A stretch of 64,000 nucleotides of DNA from a virus (Duplodnaviria > Heunggongvirae > Uroviricota > Caudoviricetes). The notes beneath the pieces were generated by a model. The model ran no database searches and had not been told where the DNA came from. It saw only the letters and a program-made list of their open reading frames with translations. Positions 4,198-52,544 of the stretch are shown here, in pieces. The stretch spans positions 1 through 64,000 of IMG/VR virus record IMGVR_UViG_3300033149_001657; one strand, written 5' to 3'. The first letter of the stretch is position 1. Each line of letters opens with the position of its first letter. Position numbers and translations under genes: made by a program.

Positions 4198-4291
4198 ACG
4201 TAAATTCCTCCTCTAATATTATCTGAATTATTCCCTCTGACTTTATCATGATCCCTGATATCTATACCTTGTGAGTCATGCTCTATCACGA

Positions 4292-4516: not shown

Positions 4517-4534
4517 GAGATATCCCTTCTATTC

Positions 4535-5881: not shown

Positions 5882-5893
5882 TTTCTTTTTACT

Positions 5894-6358: not shown

Positions 6359-6369
6359 AATATCACCTC

Positions 6370-6753: not shown

Positions 6754-7022
6754 AATCCTTTCTCCTTAAGATATTCGATAGCTTTTAGTCTATTCTCATC
6801 TTCGTTAGCTTTTATTTTCTCTAAGTTTTCCTTACGTTCTTTAATTTCTTTATGCCATTCATCAAACGTAAGAATCCACCAATAGGAGGCATGTATATCT
6901 GATCTCTTAACTTCACACTGTCCACATATAACACATATTCTATAATCTGGTGTCTCATAGTGCCACTTGTGTAGATCAAGAGATTCACACATGAAACGTC
7001 TTATCTTACTAATTATTCTCAA
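6738..7022 (-). CDS. hypothetical protein with CxxC..C motif
   Basis: Motif CVICGQCEV; 94 aa. Confidence 0.35.
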   Translation of the reverse strand: MRIISKIRRFMCESLDLHKWHYETPDYRICVICGQCEVKRSDIHASYWWILTFDEWHKEIKERKENLEKIKANEDENRLKAIEYLKEKGLWRGF

Positions 7023-7034
7023 GTCTAACTCACC

Positions 7035-13925: not shown

Positions 13926-14759
13926 TCATTCTTCATCAATCCTCCTAATAATATATGGACACTTAGAATAGCTCTTCATAGGATAGTAACTATCTATTAC
14001 ATTTAATATCTCATATGGCTCTTCAATTTTAGCTATTGAGGAAGAAAATGAGCATGGAGATATAGAGCCGTCTGGAAATACTGATATTATCTTTCTACCA
14101 CAACCACACTCTTCTATCTTTCCAATTTCAAGAGCTATACTTTCATCTACATATAAGTCAAATAGCACACTTGAAATTTTAATTGTTCTCTTTAACTCAC
14201 TAGCTCCATAATTTAGCTCATAGAACTTAGGTTGTAAAGCATAGAATTTTAGTCCTTCTGTTTTTAAATAGTTAAAGACTAAAGGCATAATTCCAAGAGC
14301 TATCTTATCCAGTATAAGGTAGTTTACTCCTACTTCAAAGTTAGACAAATTAGATAAGCTATCTATTGTACTAGATATGTTCCGTATTGAACCGTTAGAC
14401 TTAACCTTATGATGATCTACTGATACTGATACTAAGTCTACGTATTCCAATGATTCAATTACTTCTGAGTTTATTATTGAACCATTGGTAGTGAGAGACA
14501 CATTCATATCACAGTGTTTAGCTGTTTTAGCTAGTTTAGTTACTATCTTTGGAAATAATAGTGGCTCTCCACCACCTATGGCTATCTGTGGAATATTATA
14601 TTCACTAGCTGCCTTTATTAGATCACAGAACCAATCCACATCTTTCTCTACAGTAGATTTGTGAATATAGCAGAATGGACAATCGAAATTACATTTGGTA
14701 GTAAAGTGTATCGATAATACTTCAATCATCATATCCATTATTTCTGCACCATTCTTCAA
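13926..14759 (-). CDS. radical SAM enzyme (CxxxCxxC), possible C-terminal auxiliary Cys cluster
   Basis: Motifs CNFDCPFCY, GGGEPLL, and C-terminal CGCGRK..SPCSF. Confidence 0.7.
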   Translation of the reverse strand: MKNGAEIMDMMIEVLSIHFTTKCNFDCPFCYIHKSTVEKDVDWFCDLIKAASEYNIPQIAIGGGEPLLFPKIVTKLAKTAKHCDMNVSLTTNGSIINSEVIESLEYVDLVSVSVDHHKVKSNGSIRNISSTIDSLSNLSNFEVGVNYLILDKIALGIMPLVFNYLKTEGLKFYALQPKFYELNYGASELKRTIKISSVLFDLYVDESIALEIGKIEECGCGRKIISVFPDGSISPCSFSSSIAKIEEPYEILNVIDSYYPMKSYSKCPYIIRRIDEE

Positions 14760-18344: not shown

Positions 18345-19292
18345 CTACTCATCGGATTTTGGTAAAGAGTATATCATTGGATTTCCTTGTTCATCCGTAG
18401 ACACTATTAGAACATCAACATTCGGTGCTATCTCTTTAAGAGCTTCTAAATATAGATATAATTTTGCTAAGTCCTCTGCATCATCGATACCAGCTGCTCT
18501 AGCTATCATCTCTATAGATTCTCTAGTAGCATTAGCAACTATCAATCTAGTCTCAGCTTCAGCTTGAGCTATTCGTATCTTCTGTTGTGCCTCTGCATCA
18601 GCCAGAACCAATATACGTTCTCTCTCAAACTCTGCTTGTATTTTCTGTTGTTCAGCTACCATCTTATCTTCGATAGCCTGCATGTATTTCTCTGGTAATG
18701 CTATATTCCTTAAATCAAATTCCAAGTGTATTAGAGCTCCTTTAAGAGACTCTGTGTTACGTAGAGCATCGAATACAGCTTCTTGAATAGCATACGCTAC
18801 TTCCTCTCTCCTAGTTATCATCTGTGTAGCTGTAAAGTTCTTAGTAACAAATCTGATAGTCTCTCTTACTGTAGAAGCTATAGCTCTGTCTTCCCAGTCT
18901 AAGTTTGGATACGATAGGTAAAGATCTTTGAGTTTTTCTGGACATAGACTCCATCGTACCATAATGTCTATAGTAGCTTCTAGCTGATCAGACGTAAAGC
19001 ACTTAACAGCAGGGTATTCTGCATAAATATCAGTTCCGTCTCCCCACATCCCCACAGATTCTGTAGCATAGTAAATGTATACTGTTCTATACCATGGCAT
19101 CTTTACAAACCACGTAGGTCCAAGTATTGGACCAGATATTGTACCAGTCATTGGATCCACTAACAATACACCATATCCTGTATCCACTGATCTAAACATG
19201 GTACCAAAGAATATACCTAGAGATGCACCAGCTACTATACCAATCACTAGTAGTATTTTTAGGAGTCTATTTGATCTATCATTCTCCCACAT
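18345..19292 (-). CDS. SPFH/band-7 (prohibitin/HflK-stomatin) family membrane protein
   Basis: N-terminal TM helix; Ala/Glu/Gln-rich coiled region QKIQAEFERERILVLADAEAQQKIRIAQAEAETRLIVANATRESIEMIARAAG typical of band-7 proteins. Confidence 0.75.
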   Translation of the reverse strand: MWENDRSNRLLKILLVIGIVAGASLGIFFGTMFRSVDTGYGVLLVDPMTGTISGPILGPTWFVKMPWYRTVYIYYATESVGMWGDGTDIYAEYPAVKCFTSDQLEATIDIMVRWSLCPEKLKDLYLSYPNLDWEDRAIASTVRETIRFVTKNFTATQMITRREEVAYAIQEAVFDALRNTESLKGALIHLEFDLRNIALPEKYMQAIEDKMVAEQQKIQAEFERERILVLADAEAQQKIRIAQAEAETRLIVANATRESIEMIARAAGIDDAEDLAKLYLYLEALKEIAPNVDVLIVSTDEQGNPMIYSLPKSDE

Positions 19293-19537: not shown

Positions 19538-19926
19538 TTAAGAGCTAATGGCTCTATTTTCTTTCTCAGATCTTGTGGTATCTTGTTGAAAAGATACTGA
19601 AGGGATTCATCCCATGTGCCACGAGCTAATAATATGAGACGTAGAGCATCCAACAACAGTCTCCTATTAAAGTACATTTCTGTAGCTGTTTCATCGGAAA
19701 AGAAATTGGTAGCATGATCAATAAACTCACAGTAATCCTTGTATTCTTCATATACCTTAAACTTATGAAGGTATTTTCTTACTGGATCATTCTCCGATAT
19801 CGTTATTTTCACTACTACATTAGATTTTTCACTTGGTAAAACAAAAGAAACTAGGTTTTCAAGATAGCTTATTGGTGAAATGATTTTGCTATTGACTTTG
19901 TACACAGACAAGAATACTAGTCTCAT
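19525..19926 (-). CDS. hypothetical protein
   Basis: 133-aa ORF. Confidence 0.4.
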   Translation of the reverse strand: MRLVFLSVYKVNSKIISPISYLENLVSFVLPSEKSNVVVKITISENDPVRKYLHKFKVYEEYKDYCEFIDHATNFFSDETATEMYFNRRLLLDALRLILLARGTWDESLQYLFNKIPQDLRKKIEPLALKCAL

Positions 19927-21191
19927 TTTATCTTCACTACCAGATCAAAGTAGTCTGGTACTCTTCTTTCATCACCATTTCTGGTAATAACCCATATCAC
20001 AGTCATGTCTGGATTTATCATGTCCTGTGTAGGAAACACTCCATACCCATCAGTGATATAAATCAACAGATCAACGTCATCTCCATCCTCCTGAATCTTC
20101 TGAAATATAGGTCTAAAATCTGTACCTCCTCCACCTTTAAGATGTAATGTGTTTAAGTCGTATTCTGACGTAATGGTTTGAGCTTCATAAAGCATTGCAT
20201 CAGAACTATAGATAGTGAGTTCTGCATTAGGTACTTCTCTGAATATCCCTATTATCTGTGATAATCCATCTCTTAGATCTTCCATACTCATGGAGCCAGA
20301 TGTATCTATAACTACTACTCCCTTTATCCCTGACTTTAGCACACTTGGTAAGTAATATCCAGCAGCTATCGATTTCTTAGAAGGTCTAGAGTAAGTATAG
20401 TCATAAGGCATATGTCTCACAATCAACTGAGGTAAATACTCCAACCAATTGATCTGTGGTTCTATCAAATCTTCTATCAATCTCTCTATACCCAATGGAG
20501 CTTTACCCATCGAGCTGGCATGATGCCATGCATCTTTTAATACCTTTCTCCAGTTAACAGTCTCTTTGTCATCTAATGCACCTTTTGGTATTCCCAGTTT
20601 ATCTAAATCAGACTTTGATATAATACCATCCTCTACTTTTTTCTTAGCTTCCTCTATATCTCTTCTGGTTATATGTTTATCTAAGCTACCACGTTTTTTA
20701 CATACTACAATTACTGAAGGAATACCACTATATCCATTAGGGTTCTTCTGTTTAAATGGACAGTTATCACAGTCACCATTGCATTCATATCTTTTAAGAT
20801 CTGGTAACTTGTCATATATTTCTTCCCATGCCATATCTTCGTACTCTCTCATGTATAAAGCTCCCAATGGAAGTTGAAATGTTTGTAGTATCAATGGATT
20901 TATAGCTAAGTCTTGAGCCATATTAGCTTTAAAATGATCTCTTCCTTCTTCTCTCTCCAGATGTCTAAGAGCCACATGCATCACTTCATGACATATTAAC
21001 CCCTTAACCTGTTCAATACTTAATTTCTTTATGTAATCTGGATTGTAATATACAACTCCATAAGGAGTAACAGCTGCTGTGTCTTCATTGGGATCTGGTT
21101 TGAATCTTAATGACATACATAGTACTCCAAAGAATGGCTGTTTAGATATCATCTGAACTCTAGCTTTAGTGATCTTCTCTTCTGGAGACAT
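19923..21191 (-). CDS. VWA-domain protein with N-terminal HExxH metallopeptidase-like domain (MoxR partner)
   Basis: HExxH motif in LICHEVMHVALRHLE; MIDAS-like motif VVVIDTSGSMS in the C-terminal half; immediately downstream of a MoxR ATPase with a 3-nt gap. Confidence 0.7.
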   Translation of the reverse strand: MSPEEKITKARVQMISKQPFFGVLCMSLRFKPDPNEDTAAVTPYGVVYYNPDYIKKLSIEQVKGLICHEVMHVALRHLEREEGRDHFKANMAQDLAINPLILQTFQLPLGALYMREYEDMAWEEIYDKLPDLKRYECNGDCDNCPFKQKNPNGYSGIPSVIVVCKKRGSLDKHITRRDIEEAKKKVEDGIISKSDLDKLGIPKGALDDKETVNWRKVLKDAWHHASSMGKAPLGIERLIEDLIEPQINWLEYLPQLIVRHMPYDYTYSRPSKKSIAAGYYLPSVLKSGIKGVVVIDTSGSMSMEDLRDGLSQIIGIFREVPNAELTIYSSDAMLYEAQTITSEYDLNTLHLKGGGGTDFRPIFQKIQEDGDDVDLLIYITDGYGVFPTQDMINPDMTVIWVITRNGDERRVPDYFDLVVKIK

Positions 21192-21193: not shown

Positions 21194-22450
21194 TTACTCA
21201 TCCTCATCTTCTCTTTCCATAGATAAAATATATTTCCCTATTGTTGGAACAAATAGACTCCATTCTTTAAGCTTCAGTACGTTTCTATCGAAGAAATCAG
21301 GCATCATGCTCTTTATCATCTTTAGCATGAATGCACAATATTCTCTAGGCATTCTGTCTCCAATTATAAATATCCTCCTTAGAACCTCTCTAGCTTTGTC
21401 TTCAGGTTTGTTCTTTACATAATAATAGAGATACTCTGTAAGATTGGTACATAGAGCATACAGTAGATCGTTATCTTTAGGCATCTCTATTTTATCTGGG
21501 TTCTTGATGAATTTTTCTGGAGGAGCCAATCTGTCTCTTATTCTTAGAAACGATACAAATTCCTGAGCTACATAAGATCCTACTCTACCACTAGCATATA
21601 CAAATACTCTGTCTATATCTTCAACTCCTTTAATCATATCGCTTACTTTTTCCCATGTTCTAGGTGTAGCAAAAGCTTTCTCCTTACTCTTTGGATTGAA
21701 TGTGTAGATATTAGATGTTTTCACCCTTAGAAACGATATTATTCTAGGATCTATATCGTTGTTTACTGCCCATAAAGTCCATTCCTCTACTGTAGGAGTA
21801 GCTAATTCATACCATGCAAATCTATTGCATAATGGAGCTTCAAATCGAAATTCTGGACATCCATCTATATGTCCTCTATTACCAGCTGCTACTACTATCC
21901 ATCCATCTGGTAATTCATAGTCTCCTAGAGCTCTATCGTTGATTAGCTCCCATATTGCATTTCTAACCAGTGGTGGAGCTAATGGTAGCTCATCTGCAAA
22001 TATGATTCCTCTGCCTTCTCTAGGAAACCACACTGGAGCTGTCCACTTGGTTGTGTAGTCTATTATCTGATAGTCTCCTTTCCACTTAGCTGTAAAGATA
22101 TCAAAGTGTTTTATCGGTACTAGTTCCATATGTCCATTGTATTTTACTATTGCATAGTCTTCTGGTAGTCCTAGTACTTCACCAGCATCTTTCTGAGAGA
22201 ATCTCTGATCTACTAGACAGAATTTATCTGGATGAAGTATAGGAGCTTTCGTCTCAAGAAACTCAAGTGAATATTCACTAGCTAATCTTCTGGCAGCTTC
22301 TCTTACTGAACAACTTTTACCGATTCCTATTGCTCCTTGTATAAATAGAGATCCTTTTACTTCATATGTTCTCTTTATAATATCTATTAGCTGTTTATGA
22401 TTTACTACATATATTGGTCTCTCCAAGTCTTGTATCATTTTCTCAGACAT
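21194..22450 (-). CDS. MoxR-like AAA+ ATPase (AAA_5 type)
   Basis: Walker A GAIGIGKSCS; Walker B IIFADELPLAPP; sensor VVAAGN. SD GGAGGTAATTGGT before ATG. Confidence 0.7.
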   Translation of the reverse strand: MSEKMIQDLERPIYVVNHKQLIDIIKRTYEVKGSLFIQGAIGIGKSCSVREAARRLASEYSLEFLETKAPILHPDKFCLVDQRFSQKDAGEVLGLPEDYAIVKYNGHMELVPIKHFDIFTAKWKGDYQIIDYTTKWTAPVWFPREGRGIIFADELPLAPPLVRNAIWELINDRALGDYELPDGWIVVAAGNRGHIDGCPEFRFEAPLCNRFAWYELATPTVEEWTLWAVNNDIDPRIISFLRVKTSNIYTFNPKSKEKAFATPRTWEKVSDMIKGVEDIDRVFVYASGRVGSYVAQEFVSFLRIRDRLAPPEKFIKNPDKIEMPKDNDLLYALCTNLTEYLYYYVKNKPEDKAREVLRRIFIIGDRMPREYCAFMLKMIKSMMPDFFDRNVLKLKEWSLFVPTIGKYILSMEREDEDE

Positions 22451-26414: not shown

Positions 26415-27032
26415 CTATAAGCTAGATTTATCTCTTCCACGTATCTTACTATACTTATAATTATTTATAGCTTTCAGAATCTCATTGATGTCTACTGGAC
26501 AGTAGTTCCACACATCAACACCGACATTTACTAGATACGTTCTAGATGTCTTCTTTACTTTCCATCTATCATGAACATGTCCTACTAGATTGATAGGATA
26601 GTCTGGATTGTGATCAATGGGATTGTGAGTACAGTAGATATCATTGCCACCTATTCTGAGAACAAGAGACTGGATAGGAGTGTTAAGTGAGTTGTTGTGA
26701 TCATGATTACCTTTCAGCAGAACAATATTGCCATTGAGCTGGTCAAGATAGTAACTAGGCTTATGGAGCTTCTTGTAAAACATGAAGTCTCCTAGATGAA
26801 TAACAATATCATGTTTATCTACTCTGGAGTTCCATAGCTGAATCAGTCTTATATCCATGTGATCAGCTGACTTGAATGGTCTATTACAATACTTTATAAT
26901 ATTCTCATGGCTAGCTACTAAATAGTAGCTAACTTTCATGACCAAAGTGTGTATCCGATGTAAACCAAGTCTTGATATCTCATCCCTCCCAGAATTAGAT
27001 ACTATCCTCCAGTTCGTATAAACACTGAACAT
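26415..27032 (-). CDS. calcineurin-like metallophosphoesterase
   Basis: Motifs HLGDF, LKGNHDH and GHVHD (the GDxHG / GNHE / GHxH set). Confidence 0.65.
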   Translation of the reverse strand: MFSVYTNWRIVSNSGRDEISRLGLHRIHTLVMKVSYYLVASHENIIKYCNRPFKSADHMDIRLIQLWNSRVDKHDIVIHLGDFMFYKKLHKPSYYLDQLNGNIVLLKGNHDHNNSLNTPIQSLVLRIGGNDIYCTHNPIDHNPDYPINLVGHVHDRWKVKKTSRTYLVNVGVDVWNYCPVDINEILKAINNYKYSKIRGRDKSSL

Positions 27033-28293
27033 ACACTCTGTAGAGAAGTGAACCAGATATATCTCCTAGACTAGCAGCTAAAGAGGATAGAACCTCAGCT
27101 TTCTTTGACAAGTCCATACCTTTATTCCTTAGTTTAACCATATGAGATCTAACTACCTCTTTAAGATCCTTTGGTGTTGGAGCCAATCTGTGTCTGATGA
27201 TAGAACGTATCTTATTCTCTGATTGTTCTATCAGATCTGATTCTATATCCTCAGCAAGCTCCTCCTTTACTATCGGATAGAGTTGTTCTGGTGTAGAGTA
27301 ATGTGGATAATTCTCCTTAGCTTTACGTACAGCTTTGTATATGATAGATACTGGTATCCCTTTAGATGCTATCTTCCATGACTTCTCTTTTATCTCATCA
27401 CATTTTAGCTTACAGAAATGAACATCCATATCAATATTTGAGAAATGTTTAGCTACAAACCCTTCGTATCCATCCTCTCCAAGATACTCCTTAGCTTCAT
27501 ACTCTATACGTTCTATCTGCTTACGAGTAAGAATACCAGACCACATCTCTTCTACGAATGGAATGTCATACTCTTGACAGAGATCTCTTGACTTTATAGG
27601 ATTAAGAAACTTAAGAGTACAAGTATCTACCACATCAAATACTTTGAAAGCTATAGGTATAGAATACTGTATGAACTCTCCTCTATTCAGATATCCGTAT
27701 AGTTCTCCAAATACTAAGTAATCATCTTTACATACTCTCTCTATTTTCTTAAGTAGCTCTCCATTATCTATCTTAGTAAACAGCTCTTTCCAGTGTGATA
27801 CTTGTCTCTTCATAGCCTGTAGAGATTGAACGTCCCATCTAGGCATCAATCTCGTTTTGCCCATTATTTCTCCATTAGGTAAAAGAAACAATCCAATATT
27901 AGTACCATCATATTTAGCTTGAACTATCACTTCTTTATCTATTACTTTTGTATCTAATGAGTAACGAATTTTTGGATAGCCTCTGATAACAAATGACTTA
28001 CTATCAAATAGTGAGAATATAGATCCCATAAGAGAGTTTCTTTTAAGATATATTACTCCAGTCCAGTCATGTCCATTCATTTTAAAGTGAAAGCTTCTTA
28101 TCTCACTAGGCTTACACTTTAGATGTTTAGTTACTATCGTTCTTATATTCTGTAATCCCTTTGTATGTTTTAGATCTTCTCTGATATTAGATAGTCGTTC
28201 AGATAACTCACTCATCATCATCCTTGCTCCAGATATTACGAAACTCTCCTCTTTCATCATTATCAATGATATGCCATAAAGTACAATAGTCAT
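26995..28293 (-). CDS. ATP-dependent RNA ligase (Rnl2-like nucleotidyltransferase); true start probably at an internal Met
   Basis: Motif I AKYDGTN, motif III FGELYG, motif IV EGFVAKH, motif V CKLKCDE. The N-terminus overlaps the upstream ORF 28208-28486. Confidence 0.6.
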   Translation of the reverse strand: MTIVLYGISLIMMKEESFVISGARMMMSELSERLSNIREDLKHTKGLQNIRTIVTKHLKCKPSEIRSFHFKMNGHDWTGVIYLKRNSLMGSIFSLFDSKSFVIRGYPKIRYSLDTKVIDKEVIVQAKYDGTNIGLFLLPNGEIMGKTRLMPRWDVQSLQAMKRQVSHWKELFTKIDNGELLKKIERVCKDDYLVFGELYGYLNRGEFIQYSIPIAFKVFDVVDTCTLKFLNPIKSRDLCQEYDIPFVEEMWSGILTRKQIERIEYEAKEYLGEDGYEGFVAKHFSNIDMDVHFCKLKCDEIKEKSWKIASKGIPVSIIYKAVRKAKENYPHYSTPEQLYPIVKEELAEDIESDLIEQSENKIRSIIRHRLAPTPKDLKEVVRSHMVKLRNKGMDLSKKAEVLSSLAASLGDISGSLLYRVYVQCLYELEDSI

Positions 28294-32007: not shown

Positions 32008-32898
32008 CTACCCAACTCTTTCCAGTGTCTCAATATCATCCTTTATTTCTTTAAGCTCTGCTTTGGTGAGCTTCTCTGATAGAAGTTCATCCGTAATATC
32101 GATACCTTTCTTGATGCAATATCCAATATTCACACACCATGCATCTTCTCTATCCATAGCCCACATACACTTCTCATCAAATATTCTACATTTAGCATCA
32201 TCAGATATTTTCTCGTCTGTAAAACCTATTACTATCTCATCATCTTCATATTTGGAGTGTTTGTTCATTTCTTTATTTCTAAAGTTACAATATCCATAGT
32301 CAGAATATGCTTTGTAATATTGTTTCTCCTCAATCTTCTTTCCTGTGTCCTCTAGAAACTTCTCTATTTCACCAGTAAGTAATATGCTTACTTTACCATC
32401 TCCAGTCAATATACTTCCACATGGCACCTCTACAGAAATCTTAGCTTTAAAATCAAAGTCATTATCCACTACTATTGAAAATGGATGATTACAATTTACG
32501 TATTCTTCATCTGTACTAGAATGCCATGCACCATTCTTGAAAGGATGATAATGTATCACACCTTTACCTACTCCTATGTCAGGATCAGATACTGATACTG
32601 ATGAGCTAGTAACTTTCTGTTCTGGTATAATCATATCCTTGACTATGAATCCTCTATCTGTTTCTTCATAGTCTAGATAAGCTAACCATTCTGTAGAATA
32701 CTGTTTCACTAACAATAATATTTTAGAAAATATGTCCCATGGGATCTCTATCTCTTTAGAGTTTTTGTATGGACAGTATGTATGTCTATTACCGTCAGAC
32801 CATACTGTATTCTTGTAGCTCGTATATCTTGTTATCTTATTCTGATTCTTGCTCTTCTTCAATTCCTTTGATCCTCCATACTCTTTCATTCTTATCAC
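32008..32898 (-). CDS. JAB/MPN (JAMM) metalloprotease-domain protein, deubiquitinase-like
   Basis: Motif E70..H116-Y-H118-PFKNGAWH-SSTD fits E-x(n)-HxH-x(7-8)-S-xx-D. Overlaps the E1 gene by 62 nt, so operonic. Confidence 0.5.
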   Translation of the reverse strand: MIRMKEYGGSKELKKSKNQNKITRYTSYKNTVWSDGNRHTYCPYKNSKEIEIPWDIFSKILLLVKQYSTEWLAYLDYEETDRGFIVKDMIIPEQKVTSSSVSVSDPDIGVGKGVIHYHPFKNGAWHSSTDEEYVNCNHPFSIVVDNDFDFKAKISVEVPCGSILTGDGKVSILLTGEIEKFLEDTGKKIEEKQYYKAYSDYGYCNFRNKEMNKHSKYEDDEIVIGFTDEKISDDAKCRIFDEKCMWAMDREDAWCVNIGYCIKKGIDITDELLSEKLTKAELKEIKDDIETLERVG

Positions 32899-33523
32899 CT
32901 ATGACTTTAGTTACTATCTCCATCATCTCCTTATTTGATAGAAATGAACTTGGAGATCTATCAGAATATGCTAACCAACATGCTATCTGAGCTATGAAAC
33001 TAGCTGGAATAACCCAGCTAGGAACTATATTATATCCTTCTTGATCATCACCCCACGTTACTTCAGATAGCTTATAATTTTTAGATATTGTAACATGTTC
33101 TCCATCGTAGGAAGCTCTAATGAGAGTAAAATGCATTCTTCTCCAGATCCTCTCAATTATTTTATGAGCTTTTGAGTTATCAGTAGTATCAAAAACTATA
33201 TCACATTGACCAAGAAGATCAGCTGTTTCTTCAACAATCCTTCTCTCTATAGCAAATACTGTAGCATCTGGTCTAATCGAAATAATGAAGCTCCTTAAAA
33301 CCTTAGATTTCTTTTTTCCTATTACATCTTTAGGATATGGTAGTCTGTTTAAGTTAGTTACATCCACAAAGTCATCATCAAACAAATAGATAGTGTCTAC
33401 TCCAGACATAGCTGAATAGATACCTACCCATGTTCCTATTCCACCACATCCTATTATTCCTATCTTATGTGGAATATGCAATTTTAACTCACTCTGCCTT
33501 GAATACATCTTCACACACTCCAA
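32837..33523 (-). CDS. ThiF/MoeB/E1-like adenylyltransferase
   Basis: Motifs IGIIGCGGIGTWVG (GxGxxG), DDDFVDVTNLNRL and DIVFDTTDNSKAH. Confidence 0.8.
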   Translation of the reverse strand: MECVKMYSRQSELKLHIPHKIGIIGCGGIGTWVGIYSAMSGVDTIYLFDDDFVDVTNLNRLPYPKDVIGKKKSKVLRSFIISIRPDATVFAIERRIVEETADLLGQCDIVFDTTDNSKAHKIIERIWRRMHFTLIRASYDGEHVTISKNYKLSEVTWGDDQEGYNIVPSWVIPASFIAQIACWLAYSDRSPSSFLSNKEMMEIVTKVIGDKNERVWRIKGIEEEQESE

Positions 33524-34638
33524 GCTGTTCTGAGATCATGAGATTCCTTTGAAAATGAATAATCACCACGACTAATCATCTCTGTTATTACATTAATCCA
33601 ATAAAGATCACTTCTATATCTATCATCATTGTTAGCTGTACCTAGTATTTCAATCACATGATCAAATATTGGTACCAACTCTTTCATTGATCTAACTATT
33701 CTGCCTCTAGCTGGATCATTTACTCCTAAACAGACACTACCTTCTGAATTGAGGTTACAATGTGGAATAGGAGAGAATCTAGCATTAAAGAATTCATCAG
33801 CTCTAACACATAATACTTCCTCTATTCTGTATCCATCTCTAGTCTTATCAAGATAAAATATAACAAATGCATCTATTTTCTCAACCCAGTCATCTTCTAG
33901 ATAATAGATTCTACTGTTATGGATTAGTTTAGAAATCTTAAACTTATAACGTCTAGCTACAGCTATCTGATTTTTACTTGCATATTTAATTCGCCAGATC
34001 ACTAGTCCCTTAGCTGCTTCTTCAAATGTAAAGTCTGGAAACTCTAATACTCTATCCAACTTGCTTCTAACTTCTTCAAGCTTACGTTCATACTCTTCAT
34101 GAATAGACAAAATTATACTTCTAACCTCTCTTTTGAGACAATTGACTTTGTTTGATACACGTCTCTTAATATATGTTCCAAGATCAGTATTCTCTTTGAC
34201 CAGTTTACCCTCAAATATTTTATTTCCTATGGATAGATAGACTGGTTGATCTATGTCTACTATTAGATCAAACTCTGGAACTCTACTACTTAGTGAAATT
34301 CCATACTCTTCAGTCTGTTTGGAAGCTTCAAGTTCTCTAGAAAGATAGTTACTAACCGTTCTTACAAGCTCTCTCCTATCATCTTTCTTACTTATGTCTA
34401 ATCCAGCTTCTTCAAGAATTTCCCATGATGTGTCTGTTTCACCAACAAATGGTCTAAATTCATAGCATGTAACTCCCAGAGCCTTAGCTATCAAATTCGT
34501 TGATAAAACTATTTCATTGTTCCAAAAGTAGTATCCATTAGTAGATATCATTCCGATTAAATTCTTCTCATCTTCAGTATCAAGCTTAAATCTAAATCTT
34601 GGTTTACCATCTTTTCGTTTACCAAATATGAATCTCAC
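33511..34638 (-). CDS. E2 (UBC-like) ubiquitin-conjugating-domain protein with N-terminal unknown domain
   Basis: C-terminal region FSPIPHCNLNSEGSVCLGVN aligns residue-for-residue with the UBC active site HPNINSNGSICLDIL (H293..C303). Confidence 0.6.
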   Translation of the reverse strand: MRFIFGKRKDGKPRFRFKLDTEDEKNLIGMISTNGYYFWNNEIVLSTNLIAKALGVTCYEFRPFVGETDTSWEILEEAGLDISKKDDRRELVRTVSNYLSRELEASKQTEEYGISLSSRVPEFDLIVDIDQPVYLSIGNKIFEGKLVKENTDLGTYIKRRVSNKVNCLKREVRSIILSIHEEYERKLEEVRSKLDRVLEFPDFTFEEAAKGLVIWRIKYASKNQIAVARRYKFKISKLIHNSRIYYLEDDWVEKIDAFVIFYLDKTRDGYRIEEVLCVRADEFFNARFSPIPHCNLNSEGSVCLGVNDPARGRIVRSMKELVPIFDHVIEILGTANNDDRYRSDLYWINVITEMISRGDYSFSKESHDLRTAWSV

Positions 34639-34709
34639 TCTCTCATCCTCCCATAAGCATAAAAAAAAATATGGGATATTGGAGCAGAATAGAACTCAAA
34701 AAGTGAAGC

Positions 34710-34991
34710 TTATAACCCAGCTTCATCAATTGGTTCTATTCTCACTAGATAACCATTGAGATCCTCAAATGTCTCTGGAGCATCCTCTGGAGATATCTCT
34801 CGTCCATCCACTTTAACTACAAATTTACCGATACCATGTTCTCTAGCTAGAGATTTAATGGTATCGACAAAGTATTCCTCTGGATCTACTGTAACTTCTT
34901 TACCACCGATTACTATTGTAACAGGTTCTGATTCTTCTGAAGTCCATACATCTTCATTTTCGCTAGTCCATTCTCTTGGCATATCAATCAC
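34710..34991 (-). CDS. ubiquitin-like beta-grasp protein (ThiS/MoaD-like), C-terminus AGL not GG
   Basis: Motif VKVDGREIS..LNGYLVRIEPIDEAGL* resembles ThiS/MoaD VNGE..DGDEVxIIPPVSGG. First gene of the Ubl-E2-E1-JAB operon. Confidence 0.45.
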   Translation of the reverse strand: MIDMPREWTSENEDVWTSEESEPVTIVIGGKEVTVDPEEYFVDTIKSLAREHGIGKFVVKVDGREISPEDAPETFEDLNGYLVRIEPIDEAGL

Positions 34992-35052: not shown

Positions 35053-35583
35053 TTAAATAATATTCTCCAAAATATCCTCAAGTATCTTGATCATTGGTTT
35101 GAATCGTGGATCATTAGCAATCTCATCTTTACTCATAGATCTTATCTCCTTGACAATGCCATCAAACCTTTCGGATACAGTGAGTGGAGAGCAACCCTGA
35201 ATCTCATACAGTATTTTAGCTATCTCCTTATATTTCTCAGGAACCCTGAATAAGAAATAGGCATAGGTAGGATCAAAGTCATCATCCCAGTCTCTGACAT
35301 AGTATGGATGCTTTGGTAAGATAACACAAGCTCTAGCTGGACATGTATATGCATCCCAGAAGAGACATCCACTACAGTTCTCTATCTCCATGTCATTCTT
35401 CATTTCTACACATTCTCTGTTACCAGCTCCATTTCTAGTGTAGAGAATAATAGTGTTCTCATCCTTAAGGAATAAGTCTCTATATCTTCCAGAACTCCAC
35501 TCTCCAAACTCATCCAGCTCCAACATAATCTTAAGTATCCTAGCTATCTTGTTTTCACCAAATAATAAATTATATAAGCTCAT
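35053..35583 (-). CDS. Cys-rich hypothetical protein
   Basis: Motif CSGCLFWDAYTCPARAC. Confidence 0.4.
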   Translation of the reverse strand: MSLYNLLFGENKIARILKIMLELDEFGEWSSGRYRDLFLKDENTIILYTRNGAGNRECVEMKNDMEIENCSGCLFWDAYTCPARACVILPKHPYYVRDWDDDFDPTYAYFLFRVPEKYKEIAKILYEIQGCSPLTVSERFDGIVKEIRSMSKDEIANDPRFKPMIKILEDILENII

Positions 35584-35780
35584 GTATGTCCCTTCAAGAA
35601 TCTAATAGCTCTCTCTTTACTATTGAAGAGAGTACTTTTACACAGTGGACATCTATACAAAACACTCTCACTATACGATGAGATCAAGTTCTTACTTGAG
35701 TAGATCTTTACAACTTTCTTAGCAACATTAATTTCCTCTATGTAACTAATTTCCTTACAACATCTCGGACATCTAGGCAT
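35580..35780 (-). CDS. zinc-ribbon small protein
   Basis: Motifs CPRCCKE..CPLCKS. Confidence 0.4.
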   Translation of the reverse strand: MPRCPRCCKEISYIEEINVAKKVVKIYSSKNLISSYSESVLYRCPLCKSTLFNSKERAIRFLKGHT

Positions 35781-44995: not shown

Positions 44996-46399
44996 CTAGA
45001 ATAGGACAAGTGGTTTTCTCCTTGTTCTAGCTACCTTGTAATAGATATCAGCAGTTTGTCTGTTCTCTTCTATATCCCTAAGAGAAAGCATCAATGCAGT
45101 TACTCTATCATCTCCCTTTCTCTTATCCCATGTATAGAGTCTAAGCTCATTTAATAGTGGTTGAAATTCCTCTGGTACTAAGACTTTCTCTTTTTCAAAC
45201 AAAGTCTTCATTCTAACCTGTAGTGTTCCAAGTTCCTTAGCTAGATCAACAGCTTCAGTCATTATTCCTCTCATCCGTAGTCTATCCACTGTTCTCTGAG
45301 ATTCTCCTTTAGGATTCAAATCCACAAATACATAGTCTGGTCTATATCTCAAGGCATAAGCTTCTATCCAATCCTGTATGTTCTCATATTTGATTCTATT
45401 CCATTCAACTACATCAATGATTCTATACATATCGTCGACCTTGTTAGCAACTACAATAACAGACAGATCTCTATATCCGTAGTCTATACCAAATATGATC
45501 TTACCATTTTTCATCTCAGAATCATATCTAAACTTATGTATTCCAATAGAACACTTTCTAATGTCATCTATTGGAACCACAGTATTGGTAACTGGGTATG
45601 GAATACCCTCCCAGAACACTCTGAACTGTTCCTCAGTAAGATTTCTCTTAGCCTCTTCTATCTCCTCTTCTGTAAATCTAGGACAGTCCATAGCTGACCA
45701 TGAGAATCTAGCCCATGTAGTAGGTTTCCTCTGATCTTCAGATAGATCAAAATAATCTGGATATGTCTTCTTGTCCATCCACATCTCAACAAACTTTGAC
45801 GTGTATTCCATTGGAGTACCACTGAGAATGATTAAAGAATCATCGAATCCACCAACAATACGATAAGTATCGTTTATAGTGAAGTCATCTACTAATGCAG
45901 CTTCATCTATTATAACAGCTGGCACATGTTTACCCTGAATAGATTTGAGTGACAGAGGAAGAGCTCTAACTACGGACTTGGTCTTAAATCTTGTAATAGT
46001 CTTTAGAACGTCACCATCTATCACTTCACCAAATATCTCATTCTCTTTGAGAGGAACAGCTGAATACTCATATAGTGATCTAGACTGCTCAGCTGATCCA
46101 GACACTATAACTACATCAAATTTCTTCCTATGATAGTAACTATAAACCAAAGCTAACCACAAAGCTATGCATGCCAGTAGTTTACTCTTTCCAGTGCCTC
46201 CTGCCGAAACTATCATGATTCTTCTTAGTTTTAATTCTGGAAGATATGACATCACTCTAGCTTGATATGGAAATGGCTCTTGATGATATAAGTCTCTGAA
46301 AAAAGAAGAGGGATCTTTGTACCACTGAACTATCTTTAGTTGTATTGGTATTGTCATAAGTCTATCCTTCTGAGAATACTTCTTCCCATCTCTCCACAA
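44996..46399 (-). CDS. terL: terminase large subunit (TTG start, overlaps small subunit)
   Basis: Walker A SAGGTGKSK; Walker B AVIIDEAALV; C-terminal nuclease-like acidic motifs (IDYGYRD, D..D). Confidence 0.8.
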   Translation of the reverse strand: MWRDGKKYSQKDRLMTIPIQLKIVQWYKDPSSFFRDLYHQEPFPYQARVMSYLPELKLRRIMIVSAGGTGKSKLLACIALWLALVYSYYHRKKFDVVIVSGSAEQSRSLYEYSAVPLKENEIFGEVIDGDVLKTITRFKTKSVVRALPLSLKSIQGKHVPAVIIDEAALVDDFTINDTYRIVGGFDDSLIILSGTPMEYTSKFVEMWMDKKTYPDYFDLSEDQRKPTTWARFSWSAMDCPRFTEEEIEEAKRNLTEEQFRVFWEGIPYPVTNTVVPIDDIRKCSIGIHKFRYDSEMKNGKIIFGIDYGYRDLSVIVVANKVDDMYRIIDVVEWNRIKYENIQDWIEAYALRYRPDYVFVDLNPKGESQRTVDRLRMRGIMTEAVDLAKELGTLQVRMKTLFEKEKVLVPEEFQPLLNELRLYTWDKRKGDDRVTALMLSLRDIEENRQTADIYYKVARTRRKPLVLF

Positions 46400-48207: not shown

Positions 48208-49455
48208 ATGCCTATACTAATCAAAATGAATCTTGGATGTAATTTTGAGTGTGAGTATTGTTATCAGAAACCAATTAGAAAGCTAAAAGATAAAGAATGG
48301 AATCTTAAAAGAGTTAAAGAGACAATTAGAAATCTAATATTAACCATGCCAAGAGGATCTAATCAACAGATAGTTGTTCATGGAGGAGAACCATTAACTA
48401 TGCCAATAAATATACTTGAACAGTTACTAGCTCTTTCTTACGAGCTTACTGGTAAATCTAGTATACAAACAAATGGATATCTAATAACTGATAAACATAT
48501 TGAACTATTTAAGAAATACAAGACTAGCGTAGGAATATCAGTAGATGGTCCATTTCAATGTAATGTTTTACGTGGTAAAGGAAACTTGAAAGATAGAAAG
48601 AAACAAACAGAGAGAGTACTTAAGAACTTAAACAATCTTGTAGAAGCTGGTGTTTCTACTTCAGTAATAACAGTAGTACATAAGAAAAATGCAATTGGAA
48701 TAAATAGAGACTTATTAAAGAGTTTTATTTTGGATCTTCATAAGAAAGGTATCCATGGAAGACTGAATCCATGTGGAACAGATGATCCAGAGATCTCTCT
48801 TACTATTGAAGAAGCTATAGATTTCTATACTGACATGTACAAGTTTATGGAAGAGAATGGAATCTATGGATGGTCACCATTCATCGATATATTAAATTCA
48901 CTACAGAGAAAATCATGTGTATGTACATTTAGTGGTTGTGATCCATACTGTACGCCATCAGCTATTTCAGTACTCCATGATGGATCTCTTGGAGTATGCC
49001 TTAGATTATACAATGATGGTAAAGTCTATCTAAGAGATACTACACCTACTTCAATGAGAACACAACTCCTTAAAGAGACAGAATGTAAAGGTTGTAAATG
49101 GTTTGATTATTGTAAGGGAGGATGTAGTGGACTTAGTATAAATTCAGATTGGAGACACAAGGATAGATTCTGTGAAGTATACAAAGCTCTATTTGAATTA
49201 GCACATAACACTCTAAAGTTTGTTGGAATACACCCCCCATCCGTATCACAAATCTCAAGATCAAGATACGAACATTTAGATCATGGTATTAGACACCTTG
49301 ACAGTGATATTGAAAACGATCATACGGATGGAATCAAGCACTCAGACACTGGAACCACTCACCTAGATAGTAACTTCTACTCAAAGTCTGATCATTCGGA
49401 TGGAGAAAGACATGTAGATGGACCAATAGAACATTTAGATAGTAATTGGAGGTGA
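48208..49455 (+). CDS. radical SAM / SPASM-domain enzyme with C-terminal His/Asp-repeat tail
   Basis: Motifs CNFECEYCY; GGEPL; SPASM-like CKGCKWFDYCKGGCSG; roughly 60-aa tail with repeats HLDxG/HLDSN/HSDG/HTDG. Confidence 0.7.
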   Translation: MPILIKMNLGCNFECEYCYQKPIRKLKDKEWNLKRVKETIRNLILTMPRGSNQQIVVHGGEPLTMPINILEQLLALSYELTGKSSIQTNGYLITDKHIELFKKYKTSVGISVDGPFQCNVLRGKGNLKDRKKQTERVLKNLNNLVEAGVSTSVITVVHKKNAIGINRDLLKSFILDLHKKGIHGRLNPCGTDDPEISLTIEEAIDFYTDMYKFMEENGIYGWSPFIDILNSLQRKSCVCTFSGCDPYCTPSAISVLHDGSLGVCLRLYNDGKVYLRDTTPTSMRTQLLKETECKGCKWFDYCKGGCSGLSINSDWRHKDRFCEVYKALFELAHNTLKFVGIHPPSVSQISRSRYEHLDHGIRHLDSDIENDHTDGIKHSDTGTTHLDSNFYSKSDHSDGERHVDGPIEHLDSNWR

Positions 49456-49460
49456 AATAA

Positions 49461-50234
49461 ATGGAGCCTTTTACTAGAATATTATGGTTTGATCAGAAGA
49501 CAAAGCAGATATGGAAAAGACAAATTGAACAAGCTAGAAGACTCTATGAAGCTGTAGAGTTTGCTACTTTTGAAGCTGGTATGAGAGATGTCTATGTTAT
49601 GCACATATATCCAGAGAAGATATCTCAGCAACTAGAAATGATAGCTAAAGGTAAGTATGTTTTTCTTCCTATTCTGAAGAGTAAACGCTATTCTGGATTC
49701 TCTCACAGACATATACCACCAAAACCTGGTGATCCATATTTCATTTACGGAGTAGTAGCCAGAAATCTGGAGGATGCTGAGAGGTTCAAGGAATGTTCCA
49801 TTGGAAACAAGGTAGATCATGTAGAGATTGGAAGATTACTTGGATATCCTGAATGTTGTACAGAATTCTTTGATAAAGTCTGGAATAAGAAAAGCATAGA
49901 TCCAATCTATGAAGCTTATGGTTCAGAGACTTCTATTCATCCATTCTGCAATCAAGCTTTAAGATACTTTGGCATTAGACTAACACCTCATCTTGTTTGC
50001 TCTCCAACATGCAAGAGAACTATTGAAATGGGTAAGAAGTGGTTCAAAGTAGCTGAATCAATAGACTATGGATCTGCTCATACTCTTTTGAAGTTACTAT
50101 CCATGCCGTTTAAATGGTCATGTCTAAATGGATGTGCAATTATAGACACTGAACTATTTAGAGGTGTAACTAATTCGGATAAATGTTCAGAGGAAAAGGT
50201 TGTGATAAATCATGGATGGAACAAAGAACTTTAG
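49461..50234 (+). CDS. Cys-rich protein (GYPECC motif), probable partner of the rSAM enzyme
   Basis: SD GGAGGTGA then ATG; motifs LLGYPECCTEFF, CSPTCKR, CLNGC. Confidence 0.45.
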   Translation: MEPFTRILWFDQKTKQIWKRQIEQARRLYEAVEFATFEAGMRDVYVMHIYPEKISQQLEMIAKGKYVFLPILKSKRYSGFSHRHIPPKPGDPYFIYGVVARNLEDAERFKECSIGNKVDHVEIGRLLGYPECCTEFFDKVWNKKSIDPIYEAYGSETSIHPFCNQALRYFGIRLTPHLVCSPTCKRTIEMGKKWFKVAESIDYGSAHTLLKLLSMPFKWSCLNGCAIIDTELFRGVTNSDKCSEEKVVINHGWNKEL

Positions 50235-50874
50235 ATATTGTGTAGCAACTCTTGTTGGGAGACACAAGATCTATAGTACGAAAGATTTTATAGAACATTT
50301 AGAAAGAGTTACTGTACAGCCAGAGGTTATCGTTGTTTCATCCATACCAGAGATACATGAGATATTCTTCAGATATCAAAAGAATATACCAGTAGTTGGA
50401 ATAACTGGAGATCATGATGAAGGAAGAAATAGAATAGTAGACACTACTTCTGCTAGGGAATCTCTTAGACAATATATTATAAAGAATAACTATGAATGGT
50501 CACTATGGTTGGATAATGACATACTAGTACCATCCAATATAACTGAAAAATTCTTATCGTATCTAAGAAATAATCCTGAAGTTAAAATGGTTCATTCATA
50601 TCATCCAGCTAGACAGTATGGAGAGGAACTTAGACATGGAATCGGTAGTTCTTTTATTCACAAAGATCTTCTAGAAGCTTATCCATTTACTTATGCAGAA
50701 ATTAAAGGTCATTATTTAGGCGATGACCAGATTTGGTTACTAGTGATTAACCAATTAACTAGTATATATTATCCAAGATCCATCATAAGAGGAACACTAT
50801 TTGATCTTAAACATAAACGTGAAGATGGTACAGTAGCTTCCTTATCTGACAAATATAGAGATCAATTACTTTAG
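50212..50874 (+). CDS. DxD-motif nucleotide-sugar-transferase-like protein (GT-A-like, tentative), paralog 1
   Basis: Motif NYEWSLWLDNDILVP; paralogous to the next gene. Confidence 0.35.
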   Translation: MDGTKNFRYCVATLVGRHKIYSTKDFIEHLERVTVQPEVIVVSSIPEIHEIFFRYQKNIPVVGITGDHDEGRNRIVDTTSARESLRQYIIKNNYEWSLWLDNDILVPSNITEKFLSYLRNNPEVKMVHSYHPARQYGEELRHGIGSSFIHKDLLEAYPFTYAEIKGHYLGDDQIWLLVINQLTSIYYPRSIIRGTLFDLKHKREDGTVASLSDKYRDQLL

Positions 50875-50883
50875 TGACTAGAA

Positions 50884-51504
50884 ATGGAACCTTATATAGT
50901 TCTTACTCCATTTGGAGACCACAAACATTATGCTCTTAAAGAGTTTATTAGATCATTGAATAAACTTAGACCTCAACCAGAAATGAAGATTATATGTGCA
51001 GACTTGGACACAAAATACAAAGATGAATTAGAAAGTTACGATCTAGTAGTATATTACAGTCCAGAGATCTTCTCCCCTCCATCTTACCTGGAACGAATAT
51101 GTATGTCAAGAGAAATCCTAAGAAAGAAGTTCATTTATTCCAACTATGAATGGTCATTATGGATAGATTCTGATATTATAGTACCTCCAGATACTCCAAG
51201 AATTCTATATAAAATAGCTAAAGATAGTAACTGTCTGGTAGTCTCAAATGGATATCCAGGAAGCTACGGTCATGAACATGAGATCTGGCATGGATCTGGT
51301 GTTATGTTAACTAACAAGCTAGCTTGTACTGGTTCTAGATTTTGGGTAGCAGATTTCAATGGCAAGCACTTAAGTGAAGACTTTGTATTTCTAAGTATTT
51401 TAGATCAAGGTAGTTATTTTATAGAACAATATACTGGAAGAAAAGCCAGAATAGTGGGAGAATTCGTGAAAGTCAAACATCTAAGCCATAAACATAGTCA
51501 CTAA
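50884..51504 (+). CDS. DxD-motif transferase-like protein, paralog 2
   Basis: Motif NYEWSLWIDSDIIVPP; convergent overlap with the repeat-protein stop. Confidence 0.35.
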   Translation: MEPYIVLTPFGDHKHYALKEFIRSLNKLRPQPEMKIICADLDTKYKDELESYDLVVYYSPEIFSPPSYLERICMSREILRKKFIYSNYEWSLWIDSDIIVPPDTPRILYKIAKDSNCLVVSNGYPGSYGHEHEIWHGSGVMLTNKLACTGSRFWVADFNGKHLSEDFVFLSILDQGSYFIEQYTGRKARIVGEFVKVKHLSHKHSH

Positions 51505-52544
51505 GCTGTGTGTATATCACTCCAATCCTGATGAGGGTTAGCTCCATCTTGATGATCAGTCCAATCCTGATAGCTATCTGTCCAGTCTAGATGTGGTACT
51601 CCGTCATCACTATATACTACATTACTCCAATCTTCATGAGGAACACTATCTGTCCAGTCTTGATGTGGAGCTCCTCCACCACCTGCATCATTATGATCAG
51701 TCCAGTCCAGATGAGGAGGACCTGAATCTGAGTATGTTGCATCCGACCAGTCGCTATGAGCTACAGAATCTGTCCAGTCTGAATGTATACCATCTGTCCA
51801 GTCCTGATAGTCAGAGTGATATGGTGGTACATCTGAATAATCAAACCAATCAGTGTGGATACCATCAGACCAGTCATTATGACTATCAGTATGTGGTACA
51901 TTTGAATGACTGGTATCCGACCAATCAGTGTGTGGTCCAGAATCCGTATAGTCAGACCAGTCACTATGCACGTCAGACCAATCACTATGACTGTCAGTAT
52001 GAGGAGTATCTGAATGAGAACTATCCGACCAGTCTGTATGTGGTCCAGAATCAGAGTGTCCAGTATCCATATGATCACTCCAGTCCTGATACGTATCAGT
52101 CCAGTCACTGTAGAATGTCCAGTTCAAACCATCTGTTGTCTGCACAGACTCAGGTGCCAGAAACATCATCTTTACTTCATCTGTTGTGTGGAATGCCTCA
52201 AGTATTGAAGACTTCGATTTGAAGCTACCTACTGTCTGGATAGACTCATCTTTGAATAATGAAGTTAACAACCTATCATCTAAAGATACATCATGCTCTG
52301 TCAGGAATTTGTCTCCCCATGCAACAGCCCATATACTCCCATTATGGTATACTCTTACTGGACTAGCTAGTGGTGAAATAGTAGATACAAGTCTGAGACT
52401 GATGGTCTCTCCTCCAGTAAAGATTTTGACAAATGTACCTTCGGTAATGTCTTTCTCCCATGATAGAACTTTCCATCTAAGAACACGAGACTTTCCTTTG
52501 TATCCCACTCTTACCTTAGACCAATCAGTGCTCATCTTCATCAC
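51501..52544 (-). CDS. DW[ST]D / PH-repeat protein (347 aa) with globular N-terminal domain
   Basis: About 18 repeats of DWSD/DWTD separated by ..PH[TSLQ]. Overlapping shadow ORFs in other frames are side effects of the DNA repeats. Confidence 0.5.
   Translation of the reverse strand: MMKMSTDWSKVRVGYKGKSRVLRWKVLSWEKDITEGTFVKIFTGGETISLRLVSTISPLASPVRVYHNGSIWAVAWGDKFLTEHDVSLDDRLLTSLFKDESIQTVGSFKSKSSILEAFHTTDEVKMMFLAPESVQTTDGLNWTFYSDWTDTYQDWSDHMDTGHSDSGPHTDWSDSSHSDTPHTDSHSDWSDVHSDWSDYTDSGPHTDWSDTSHSNVPHTDSHNDWSDGIHTDWFDYSDVPPYHSDYQDWTDGIHSDWTDSVAHSDWSDATYSDSGPPHLDWTDHNDAGGGGAPHQDWTDSVPHEDWSNVVYSDDGVPHLDWTDSYQDWTDHQDGANPHQDWSDIHTA

Follow-up and report, generated by a model that had tools for sequence, protein, structure and literature searches.

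Four consecutive genes on the minus strand of the virus contig IMGVR_UViG_3300033149_001657, of which positions 1 to 64,000 were analysed and are referred to here as the window, encode what is probably a complete machinery for tagging other proteins with a ubiquitin-like protein (Ubl). From the fold classes and predicted catalytic residues of the four products we infer, with a probability of about 0.75, that they form a self-contained, virus-encoded conjugation cascade; the steps that go beyond fold assignment are worded conditionally throughout. The genes occupy 32008-34991 in the order Ubl, conjugating enzyme (E2), activating enzyme (E1) and JAB peptidase, and all four open reading frames were recovered where a first-pass annotation of the window had placed them. 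What is new in this arrangement is a virus-borne Ubl system with no E3 ligase, in which a canonical E2 of the HPN-Cys type with a large N-terminal domain is combined with a minimal, cysteine-less E1. All four genes are confirmed as real and every component assignment is backed by tool evidence, the E1 being the only one of the four to be recognised at once; as single sequences the E2, the JAB and the Ubl have no match in Pfam, NCBIfam, PHROGs, PADLOC or the PDB.

The assignment of the second gene (33511..34638, minus; 375 amino acids) to the E2 enzymes begins with its active-site stretch, SPIPHCNLNSEGSVCLGVN (33724..33762, minus), which reads H293-C-N295 ... G300-S-V-C303-L-G305 and in which Cys303 is the predicted catalytic cysteine. 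The 10-residue step from H293 to C303 is identical to that from H75 to C85 of UBE2D2. It had been claimed that this region matches the UBC active site residue for residue, and this holds for the spacing of the catalytic cysteine and fails at the tripeptide ahead of it, which is HCN in the window E2 and HPN in most relatives. Among 5.8 billion proteins the 375-residue protein shares its 90% cluster with none besides itself, an exhaustive HMMER scan of 1.84 billion representatives recovered eight, and a word-indexed search with the E2 alignment added no more. The alignment of the eight reads 'HPNV...G.VCLG ... L.T.N.DD', with Cys303 and Asn336 invariant, and in a 17-row alignment that includes sequences from related loci C303, N336 and W373 are invariant, N336 sitting in an 'N.DD' element that is aligned to the 'PNPDD' of known E2s. 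The invariant tryptophan lies near the C-terminus (residues 373-375, 33514-33522).

Searched against the PDB, the 17-row profile gave 141 matches at E<=1, of which the best 60 are all UBC E2s, with UBE2D2 first (3.2e-5). The alignment pairs profile positions 284-353 with residues 70-143 of the E2s, a stretch that runs from the HPN loop through the catalytic cysteine, helix 2 and the 'PNPDD' turn to the C-terminal helices. Comparison of the family by hhalign with five human E2s returned a probability of 93.9% and an E-value of 1.6e-7 over 47 columns. An HPN-type motif at the canonical spacing and significant profile similarity are both present, and together with the invariance of Cys303 they uphold the UBC-type E2 assignment made in the first-pass annotation. 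The sequence alignments reach 47-78 columns only, from the HPN loop to the C-terminal helices, and a single-sequence AlphaFold2 model of the E2 was unusable (predicted local distance difference test score, pLDDT, 36). The first 280 residues have no match in Pfam or, by profile search, in the PDB, and a long helix is predicted at residues ~152-197, within the N-terminal ~215-280 residues. The large N-terminal extension described earlier is present; its size, put then at about 270 residues, is estimated from the sequence at nearer 215 beyond the UBC core, since the part of a UBC fold that precedes the HPN motif takes up ~75 residues.

The E1 (32837..33523, minus) has 228 amino acids when read from a TTG and probably 223 from the ATG at 33508. 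It matches Pfam ThiF (PF00899) at 2.4e-25, with 89.5 bits against a cut-off of 28.1, and its best solved relative in the PDB is E. coli ThiF (8e-15). The motifs GCGGIGTW, NLNR and DTTDN are found in the window sequence, and an 11-sequence alignment conserves R9/Q10, GxGGxG, D49/D51, N57-L-N-R60, K72 and T114-D115, so that the GxGxxG loop, the Arg finger and the Asp of a ThiF-MoeB adenylating domain are all in place and the earlier call of a ThiF/E1 adenylyltransferase is sustained. The conserved crossover-loop cysteine of a canonical thioester-forming E1 is not found. Among 19 non-identical family members there is no conserved cysteine column, and none in the crossover-loop region, which is where the cysteines of E1, ThiF and MoeB sit; three cysteines that are common in the close subfamily, in the P-loop (GCGG), in a beta-strand (QCDIV) and in a helix (IACWL), are all replaced in distant members. 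The two CxxC zinc motifs of ThiF and MoeB are also absent. Given that neither the zinc motifs nor a conserved cysteine is present, the E1 reads as a minimal single-domain adenylase, and it is probably homodimeric like its relatives.

The last gene (32008..32898, minus) encodes a putative JAB/JAMM (MPN+) metallopeptidase of 296 amino acids from a GTG or 293 from the ATG at 32889. Its predicted zinc site, H116-Y-H118-x8-S127-S-T-D130 (32509..32553, minus), and the catalytic Glu70 (codon 32689-32691) fall on invariant columns: E70, H116, H118, S127 and D130 are shared by all seven homologues from syntenic loci (alignment A2). A search with the family profile found 22 proteins, five of which carry a precomputed PF14464 (Prok-JAB) assignment at E-values of 5.5e-29 to 8.1e-13, and the relative at one related locus, L013, passes Prok-JAB directly (6.9e-7; 29.6 bits against a cut-off of 25). 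The profile found no relatives when set against the PDB and Pfam themselves. The E ... HxH ... S..D motif and these transitive matches together bear out the JAMM/JAB call of the first-pass annotation, whose quoted motifs for the E2, the E1 and the JAB are all present in the sequence. The core of the protein covers residues ~30-200, and the C-terminal ~100 residues are lineage-specific, containing cysteines here and forming a zinc ribbon in the L007 relative.

The first gene (34710..34991, minus) encodes the Ubl precursor, of 93 amino acids from the GTG at 34991 and probably 90 from the ATG at 34982. Comparison with relatives indicates that this ATG, and those of the E1 and the JAB, are probably the true starts. 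The Ubl assignment rests on a beta-grasp model and a conserved C-terminal Ala-Gly because sequence methods give no family link, the family profile having found no relatives in the PDB or Pfam. The AlphaFold model is confident and has a beta-grasp fold with a core at residues ~24-90, as had been proposed for this small protein, and a Foldseek search with it returned ubiquitin, SUMO and ISG15 as top matches, Caldiarchaeum ubiquitin among them. Ala91 and Gly92, encoded with Leu93 at 34713..34721 (minus), are invariant in 23 Ubl-family sequences and are followed by 0-3 variable residues; the family C-termini are DEAG, DEAG-L, DEAG-Y, DEAG-H, DKAG-YC, KAG-AGA and, in the L009 relative, DEG-A. Gly92 is the predicted reactive glycine of a ubiquitin-like modifier and Leu93 a tail predicted to be removed. 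The residues ahead of the core, 1 to ~20-25, form an acidic, disordered tail that contains a conserved W-T-x-x-E-P (residues ~14-24, 34920-34950); this element and the invariant tryptophan of the E2 could, judged from their conservation, be docking motifs.

The order small protein, ~370-residue protein, ThiF, JAB is not peculiar to the window. Related loci, collected by a locus search with the JAB alignment and numbered L001 onwards, repeat it in L001-L009, L014, L016 and L018-L026, and the four-gene module is kept together in ~15-20 distinct virus-like contigs whose E2s have 17-79% identity to that of the window. The conserved synteny, which persists in relatives whose E2s have only 17-45% identity, the invariant motifs and the profile and structure matches to the expected superfamilies are more than chance. 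None of 185,579 reference genomes yielded a relative of the cassette in a pattern scan. Flanking genes differ between loci, except for an RNA-ligase-like gene that is often only a few kb away; apart from it, the module has no conserved companion. The neighbourhoods look viral at all loci, with many small open reading frames, an MCM helicase, a methyltransferase, a TROVE protein and an endolysin.

More divergent arrangements also occur. In L010-L012 the order is Ubl, three small genes, JAB, a 410-residue protein and ThiF, the Ubl of L010 ending KAG-AGA and standing three genes upstream. The 410-residue E2-like protein (L010 8107-9339; also in L011 and L012) carries 'HPNIGNYICLGDL' followed, in a Cys-rich C-terminal half, by a region of ~200 residues full of CxxC pairs, so that the E2 may here be joined to a module of the zinc-finger or RING-like kind. 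L013 has the order E2-like protein (289 residues), ThiF, JAB; its E2-like protein lacks the first ~110 residues and is found by the family hidden Markov model at 1.6e-13 in a search of all loci, a further score of 3e-53 having come from a profile (A4) that includes the L013 sequence itself. L017, the high-GC, 68.5-kb record IMGVR_UViG_2914811602_000003, has cassette-like genes at 2709-7767, namely two tandem ThiS-like genes, a ThiF (6.9e-17), a JAB (HGHSH...SPSPTD) and a 351-residue protein with 'VHPHILGNDEPCLGD', and probably represents a remote version of the cassette, carried by a virus of a very different kind; genes for a dCTP deaminase and a primase/helicase are close by. The E2-like proteins of L010 and L017 share H-P-x...C-L-G with the family and gave hhalign probabilities of only 6% and 2%, so that they are probable family members at the level of the motif.

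The sequence matches of the E1 raise the possibility of a quite different pathway, in which the small protein would be a sulfur carrier of the ThiS/MoaD/SAMP kind that is adenylated by the E1 and turned into a thiocarboxylate that serves the thiolation of cofactors, tRNA or DNA, and in which the JAB would only mature it. The best named matches of the E1 are ThiF and MoeB, it has no catalytic-Cys domain, the terminal Gly of the Ubl is single, the window has genes for two radical-SAM proteins at other positions, and archaeal SAMPs are both sulfur carriers and protein modifiers. However, a sulfur-carrier role is very improbable, because the E2 is fixed in the module and sulfur-transfer partners are missing. 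A UBC-type E2 with an invariant Cys and HPN is an obligatory syntenic member, and sulfur-carrier pathways have no use for an E2. At no locus does the module contain or adjoin a gene for ThiG/ThiH/MoaE, a rhodanese or a cysteine desulfurase, and the earlier statement that thiamine and molybdopterin genes are lacking extends to every locus examined, both in the module and next to it. The radical-SAM genes are 14-18 kb off and not co-conserved with the module. The small protein itself also argues for a modifier: hhalign of its family with authentic E. coli ThiS and MoaD found nothing (probability 0.1%), Pfam ThiS matched none of the seven family members of alignment A3, the window sequence included, and the model resembles ubiquitin-type modifiers more closely than it does ThiS/MoaD. 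Sub-threshold Pfam ThiS matches (0.003-0.0065) were obtained for the small proteins of the distant L017. A ThiS/MoaD biosynthetic role was rejected on the absence of partner genes at any locus and of sequence similarity to ThiS or MoaD.

For the conjugation cascade, then, the following course is suggested. The Ubl would be made as a precursor ending in Ala-Gly-Leu, and the JAB would trim the tail, exposing Gly92, and would probably also reverse conjugation; trimming of a Ubl tail by a JAB is a precursor logic shown experimentally for BilA of the bacterial ISG15-like (Bil) system and its JAB (PMC10557695). The minimal ThiF-type E1, presumably as a homodimer, would adenylate Gly92 with ATP. Because the E1 family is without a conserved cysteine, it is suggested that Cys303 of the bound E2 would attack the Ubl-adenylate directly, so that E2~Ubl would be formed as a thioester and E1~Ubl would not. 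A working conjugation pathway whose E1 has no catalytic cysteine is known from the Bub systems, which use oxyesters (PMC11601596). Finally, the E2 would pass the Ubl to target lysines with no E3, and its lineage-variable accessory region, here the N-terminal ~215 residues, may serve as the target-recognition module, much as the E2 has been proposed to choose targets in the E3-less Bil system (PMC11601596). These accessory regions differ between lineages: the window E2 has an N-terminal domain, the L013 protein lacks the first ~110 residues, and in L010 it is the C-terminal region that is set apart, by its many cysteines.

Several observations weigh against this cascade. Sequence comparison does not detect the N-terminal half of the UBC fold (helix 1 with the beta-meander); neither the JAB nor the Ubl of the window has a direct significant match in Pfam or the PDB, the membership of the former following from motifs and transitive homology; and the Ubl ends in Ala-Gly, not Gly-Gly. 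The E1 is by sequence most like the sulfur-carrier enzymes ThiF and MoeB, and the thioester cascades known to us have an E1 with the catalytic cysteine that this one lacks.

Comparison with known systems places the cassette near several of them and within none. The first-pass annotation had called it Bil-type, and the resemblance is considerable: like BilABCD of Types I and II, it consists of four separate proteins with no E3, a Ubl with a short tail past the reactive Gly for removal by a JAB, and an E2 proposed as the selector of targets (PMC10557695, PMC11601596). However, the gene order of Bil is Ubl-E2-DUB-E1, whereas that of the cassette is Ubl-E2-E1-JAB; the Bil E1 is a multidomain IAD-AAD-CYS protein with a catalytic Cys and structural zinc, whereas the E1 here is a single domain of 223-228 residues with no conserved Cys or CxxC; and the Bil E2 has a site made of Cys and a downstream His, not HPN, whereas the E2 here has HPN-x7-Cys and the ~215-residue N-terminal extension (PMC10557695, PMC11601596). 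Bil, furthermore, is found in bacterial defence islands, the cassette in a virus. For the window and ten relatives, the Ubl, the E2 and the JAB are without a match among the PADLOC models, and on the cassette PADLOC matched the E1 only, through the E1 half of the CBASS Cap2 'E1-E2' models. Given these differences in E1 architecture, E2 active site, gene order, model match and genomic setting, membership in Bil was rejected and the label withdrawn: the cassette works like Bil in outline and is not a member of it.

The likeness to Bil nevertheless bears on what the cassette may be for. Bil conjugates its Ubl to a phage tail protein, the central tail fibre (10.1101/2023.09.04.556158), and has the same four component types, which raises the possibility that the virus carries a Bil-like defence for superinfection exclusion, with the same chemistry directed at structural proteins of rival viruses; the variable accessory domains of the E2, N-terminal here and Cys-rich and C-terminal in L010, would fit an arms race. 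Viral genomes are, in general, frequent carriers of defence modules. Such a role is unlikely here: in addition to the divergence from Bil and the lack of any PADLOC match, to Bil or another defence model, for the Ubl, E2 or JAB, the module is stable across a whole group of related ~108-kb viruses and does not behave as a sporadic cargo island, and it has no neighbouring genes for defence regulators of the CapH/CapP or BrxR kind.

In its E1, the cassette is closer to Bub (6E/DUF6527), in which a homodimeric, ThiF/UBA5-like adenylation-domain E1 is without a catalytic cysteine and a JAB matures the Ubl (PMC11601596). It differs from Bub in that Bub proceeds through Ser/oxyester intermediates, has fused proteins (Ubl-E2, JAB-E1 or E2-E1) and includes the serine protease BubE, whereas the proteins here are separate, the E2 cysteine is invariant and there is no DUF6527 gene. 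With the archaeal ubiquitin operons of Caldiarchaeum subterraneum and the Asgard group it shares a UBC-type E2 of the HPN-Cys kind and a ubiquitin-like beta-grasp modifier, clustered with an Rpn11-like JAB. Those operons have a larger, Cys-containing E1, a RING E3 and a ubiquitin ending in Gly-Gly; the cassette, in contrast, has a minimal Cys-less E1, no RING and an Ala-Gly end, and stands among viral genes. SAMP/UbaA/JAMM1 sampylation, in what is probably the same host domain, likewise combines a beta-grasp modifier with a ThiF-type E1 and a JAMM peptidase; it is, however, not known to have an E2, which is a fixed member here.

Among viruses of bacteria and archaea, two partial precedents are relevant. 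The TAPI (Ubl) and TAPK (JAB) proteins of lambda and T1 are the only Ubl and JAB pairing described earlier within phage genomes and, as in the cassette, a conserved Gly ends the beta-grasp domain; they differ in lacking an E1 and an E2, in lying within the tail module and in the fusion of the JAB to an NlpC/P60 peptidase (PMC1779556). On this precedent the Ubl could be attached to the structural proteins of the virus itself, as the first-pass annotation had suggested for the tail, or act as a removable chaperone for them, during virion assembly or maturation. This form of self-modification is about as improbable as the defence role, given that the cassette lies outside the structural module, ~10 kb from the terminase gene and among small non-structural genes near the RNA-ligase-like gene, that other loci place it beside a methyltransferase, MCM, TROVE protein or endolysin, and that the TAPI/TAPK systems have neither E1 nor E2. 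The second precedent is the 'Nidhogg' viruses of Helarchaeota (Rambo et al.), which are likewise large, tailed, from hydrothermal sediment and equipped with ThiF/E1-like proteins and an RNA ligase (10.1101/2021.07.29.454249). In the 117,419-bp Nidhogg genome only E1-like genes, three of them, were recognised, and the authors proposed that the E2 and Ubl are borrowed from the host (10.1101/2021.07.29.454249), whereas the virus studied here has its own Ubl, E2 and JAB, and one E1 in the window, on a 107,896-bp contig; these are therefore not the same genome. A jumbo-phage survey mentions no such system (PMC7824862), and no report of a complete Ubl-conjugation cassette in a virus of bacteria or archaea was found in a literature coverage that is incomplete.

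Within the cassette, the layout of the genes invites some further comment. They had been described as four consecutive, overlapping minus-strand genes; consecutive they are, and overlap or direct abutment is limited to E2/E1 and E1/JAB, a gap of 71 nucleotides separating the Ubl from the E2. Direct reading and a pattern scan of 34647..34725 (minus) identified a hairpin at 34704-34725 that overlaps the Ubl stop codon, a T9 tract at 34661-34669 and the sequence GGGAGG at 34647-34652, the last standing 8 nucleotides ahead of the GTG start of the E2. The hairpin and T9 tract may act as a partial terminator, which would give an excess of the Ubl over the enzymes. The palindrome GCTAGCTAGC upstream of the Ubl has one occurrence, the number expected by chance. 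Each of the four genes is single-copy, no extra ThiF, E2, Ubl or JAB being present in the window. A Cys-rich protein of 176 residues (35053-35583, minus) is encoded between the Ubl gene and that of a conserved 66-residue zinc-ribbon protein (35580-35780, minus); in the close relative L001 the Cys-rich gene is absent and the zinc-ribbon gene stands directly before the Ubl, so that the former looks like a recent insertion.

The viral location of the cassette, claimed in the first-pass annotation, is secure. The source contig comes from a tailed virus of sediment metagenomes, its nearest relatives are IMG/VR contigs of 109,754 and 107,029 bp, and the window encodes a large terminase (44996-46399; PHROG 2.8e-31), a tail-fibre/virion protein (52544-55735) and a tail tube (62565-63512; Pfam 5.6e-16). 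Against 50,697 deposited phage genomes, a nucleotide search found no DNA similarity for the window or the cassette, and the terminase has only ~26% identity to any terminase among them. Nearly all genes of the window lie on a single strand, and no tRNAs were found in it. The RNA-ligase-like protein (26995-28293, minus; Pfam 1.2e-13) belongs to a strongly conserved family (E-values of 1e-160 to 1e-240) encoded near the cassette in several loci, among them L001, L005, L016 and L021. A plus-strand island of four genes with reversed GC skew (48208-51504) interrupts the otherwise minus-strand genome and encodes a radical-SAM/Fer4_12 protein of 415 residues, a DUF483 protein of 257 residues and a further two proteins that match nothing. 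The other radical-SAM/Fer4_12 protein (277 residues; 13926-14759, minus) is encoded at a position unrelated to the cassette. Adjacent genes at 19923-21191 and 21194-22450 (minus) encode a putative metallopeptidase of the DUF2201 family, which also has a VWA-like domain (Pfam 1.4e-38 and 1.4e-16), and a 418-residue protein with no match, and an SPFH/Band-7 protein is encoded at 18345-19292.

Several hints point to an archaeal host. DUF483 is an archaeal Pfam family, an MCM helicase is encoded in L011, and the gene content resembles that of the Nidhogg viruses in being that of a tailed virus with an RNA ligase and ThiF-like genes. In addition, members of the Ubl and E2 families are present as hypothetical proteins in two metagenome-assembled genomes (MAGs) of 'Candidatus Bathyarchaeota' (RLI01121.1 and RLI01122.1 of DRO30; RLI19682.1 of DRO47), which are either a clue to the host or mis-binned viral contigs, the binning of viral contigs into MAGs being weak evidence. 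The archaea that are its probable hosts possess proteasomes that make use of Ubl tags, and the accessory domains of the E2 are fast to diverge. The leading guess for the role of the cassette, held tentatively and at somewhat less than even odds, is that host proteins are tagged by the virus during infection, to be inactivated or removed by the proteasome, in takeover of the cell or as counter-defence; tagging of rival viruses and tagging of its own proteins are each rated about half as likely.

Until now, operons for Ubl conjugation have been known from eukaryotes, a few archaea and, since 2022-2024, bacterial anti-phage defence, and in prokaryotic viruses only isolated parts had been seen, namely a Ubl with a JAB, which act in the assembly of the lambda tail, and the ThiF/E1-like genes of Asgard viruses, for which a hijack of host E2 and Ubl was assumed. 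In public databases three of the four proteins have no annotation beyond 'hypothetical protein', the entries from the two Bathyarchaeota MAGs among them, and the family alignments would allow them to be annotated. The pairing of an HPN-Cys E2 with a minimal Cys-less E1 is unusual, and the small size of the system (about 90, 375, 225 and 295 amino acids) makes it well suited to asking if an E2 can be charged directly from an E1-bound adenylate. It is conceivable, although rather doubtful at present, that an archaeal tailed-virus lineage, with distant variants elsewhere, has an autonomous minimal ubiquitination machine in which a Cys-less adenylase charges an HPN-Cys E2 and an accessory domain replaces the E3, and that it uses this machine to rewrite the host proteome. 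If so, no prokaryotic virus before it would have had a complete Ubl-conjugation system to its name, and the machine would be a mechanistic intermediate between the sulfur-carrier ThiF/ThiS pairs and the eukaryotic E1-E2 cascade. A virus with the whole kit would move the picture from one that hijacks the host pathway to one that imports its own, and points to protein tagging as a tool of both parties in the conflict between prokaryotic viruses and their hosts.

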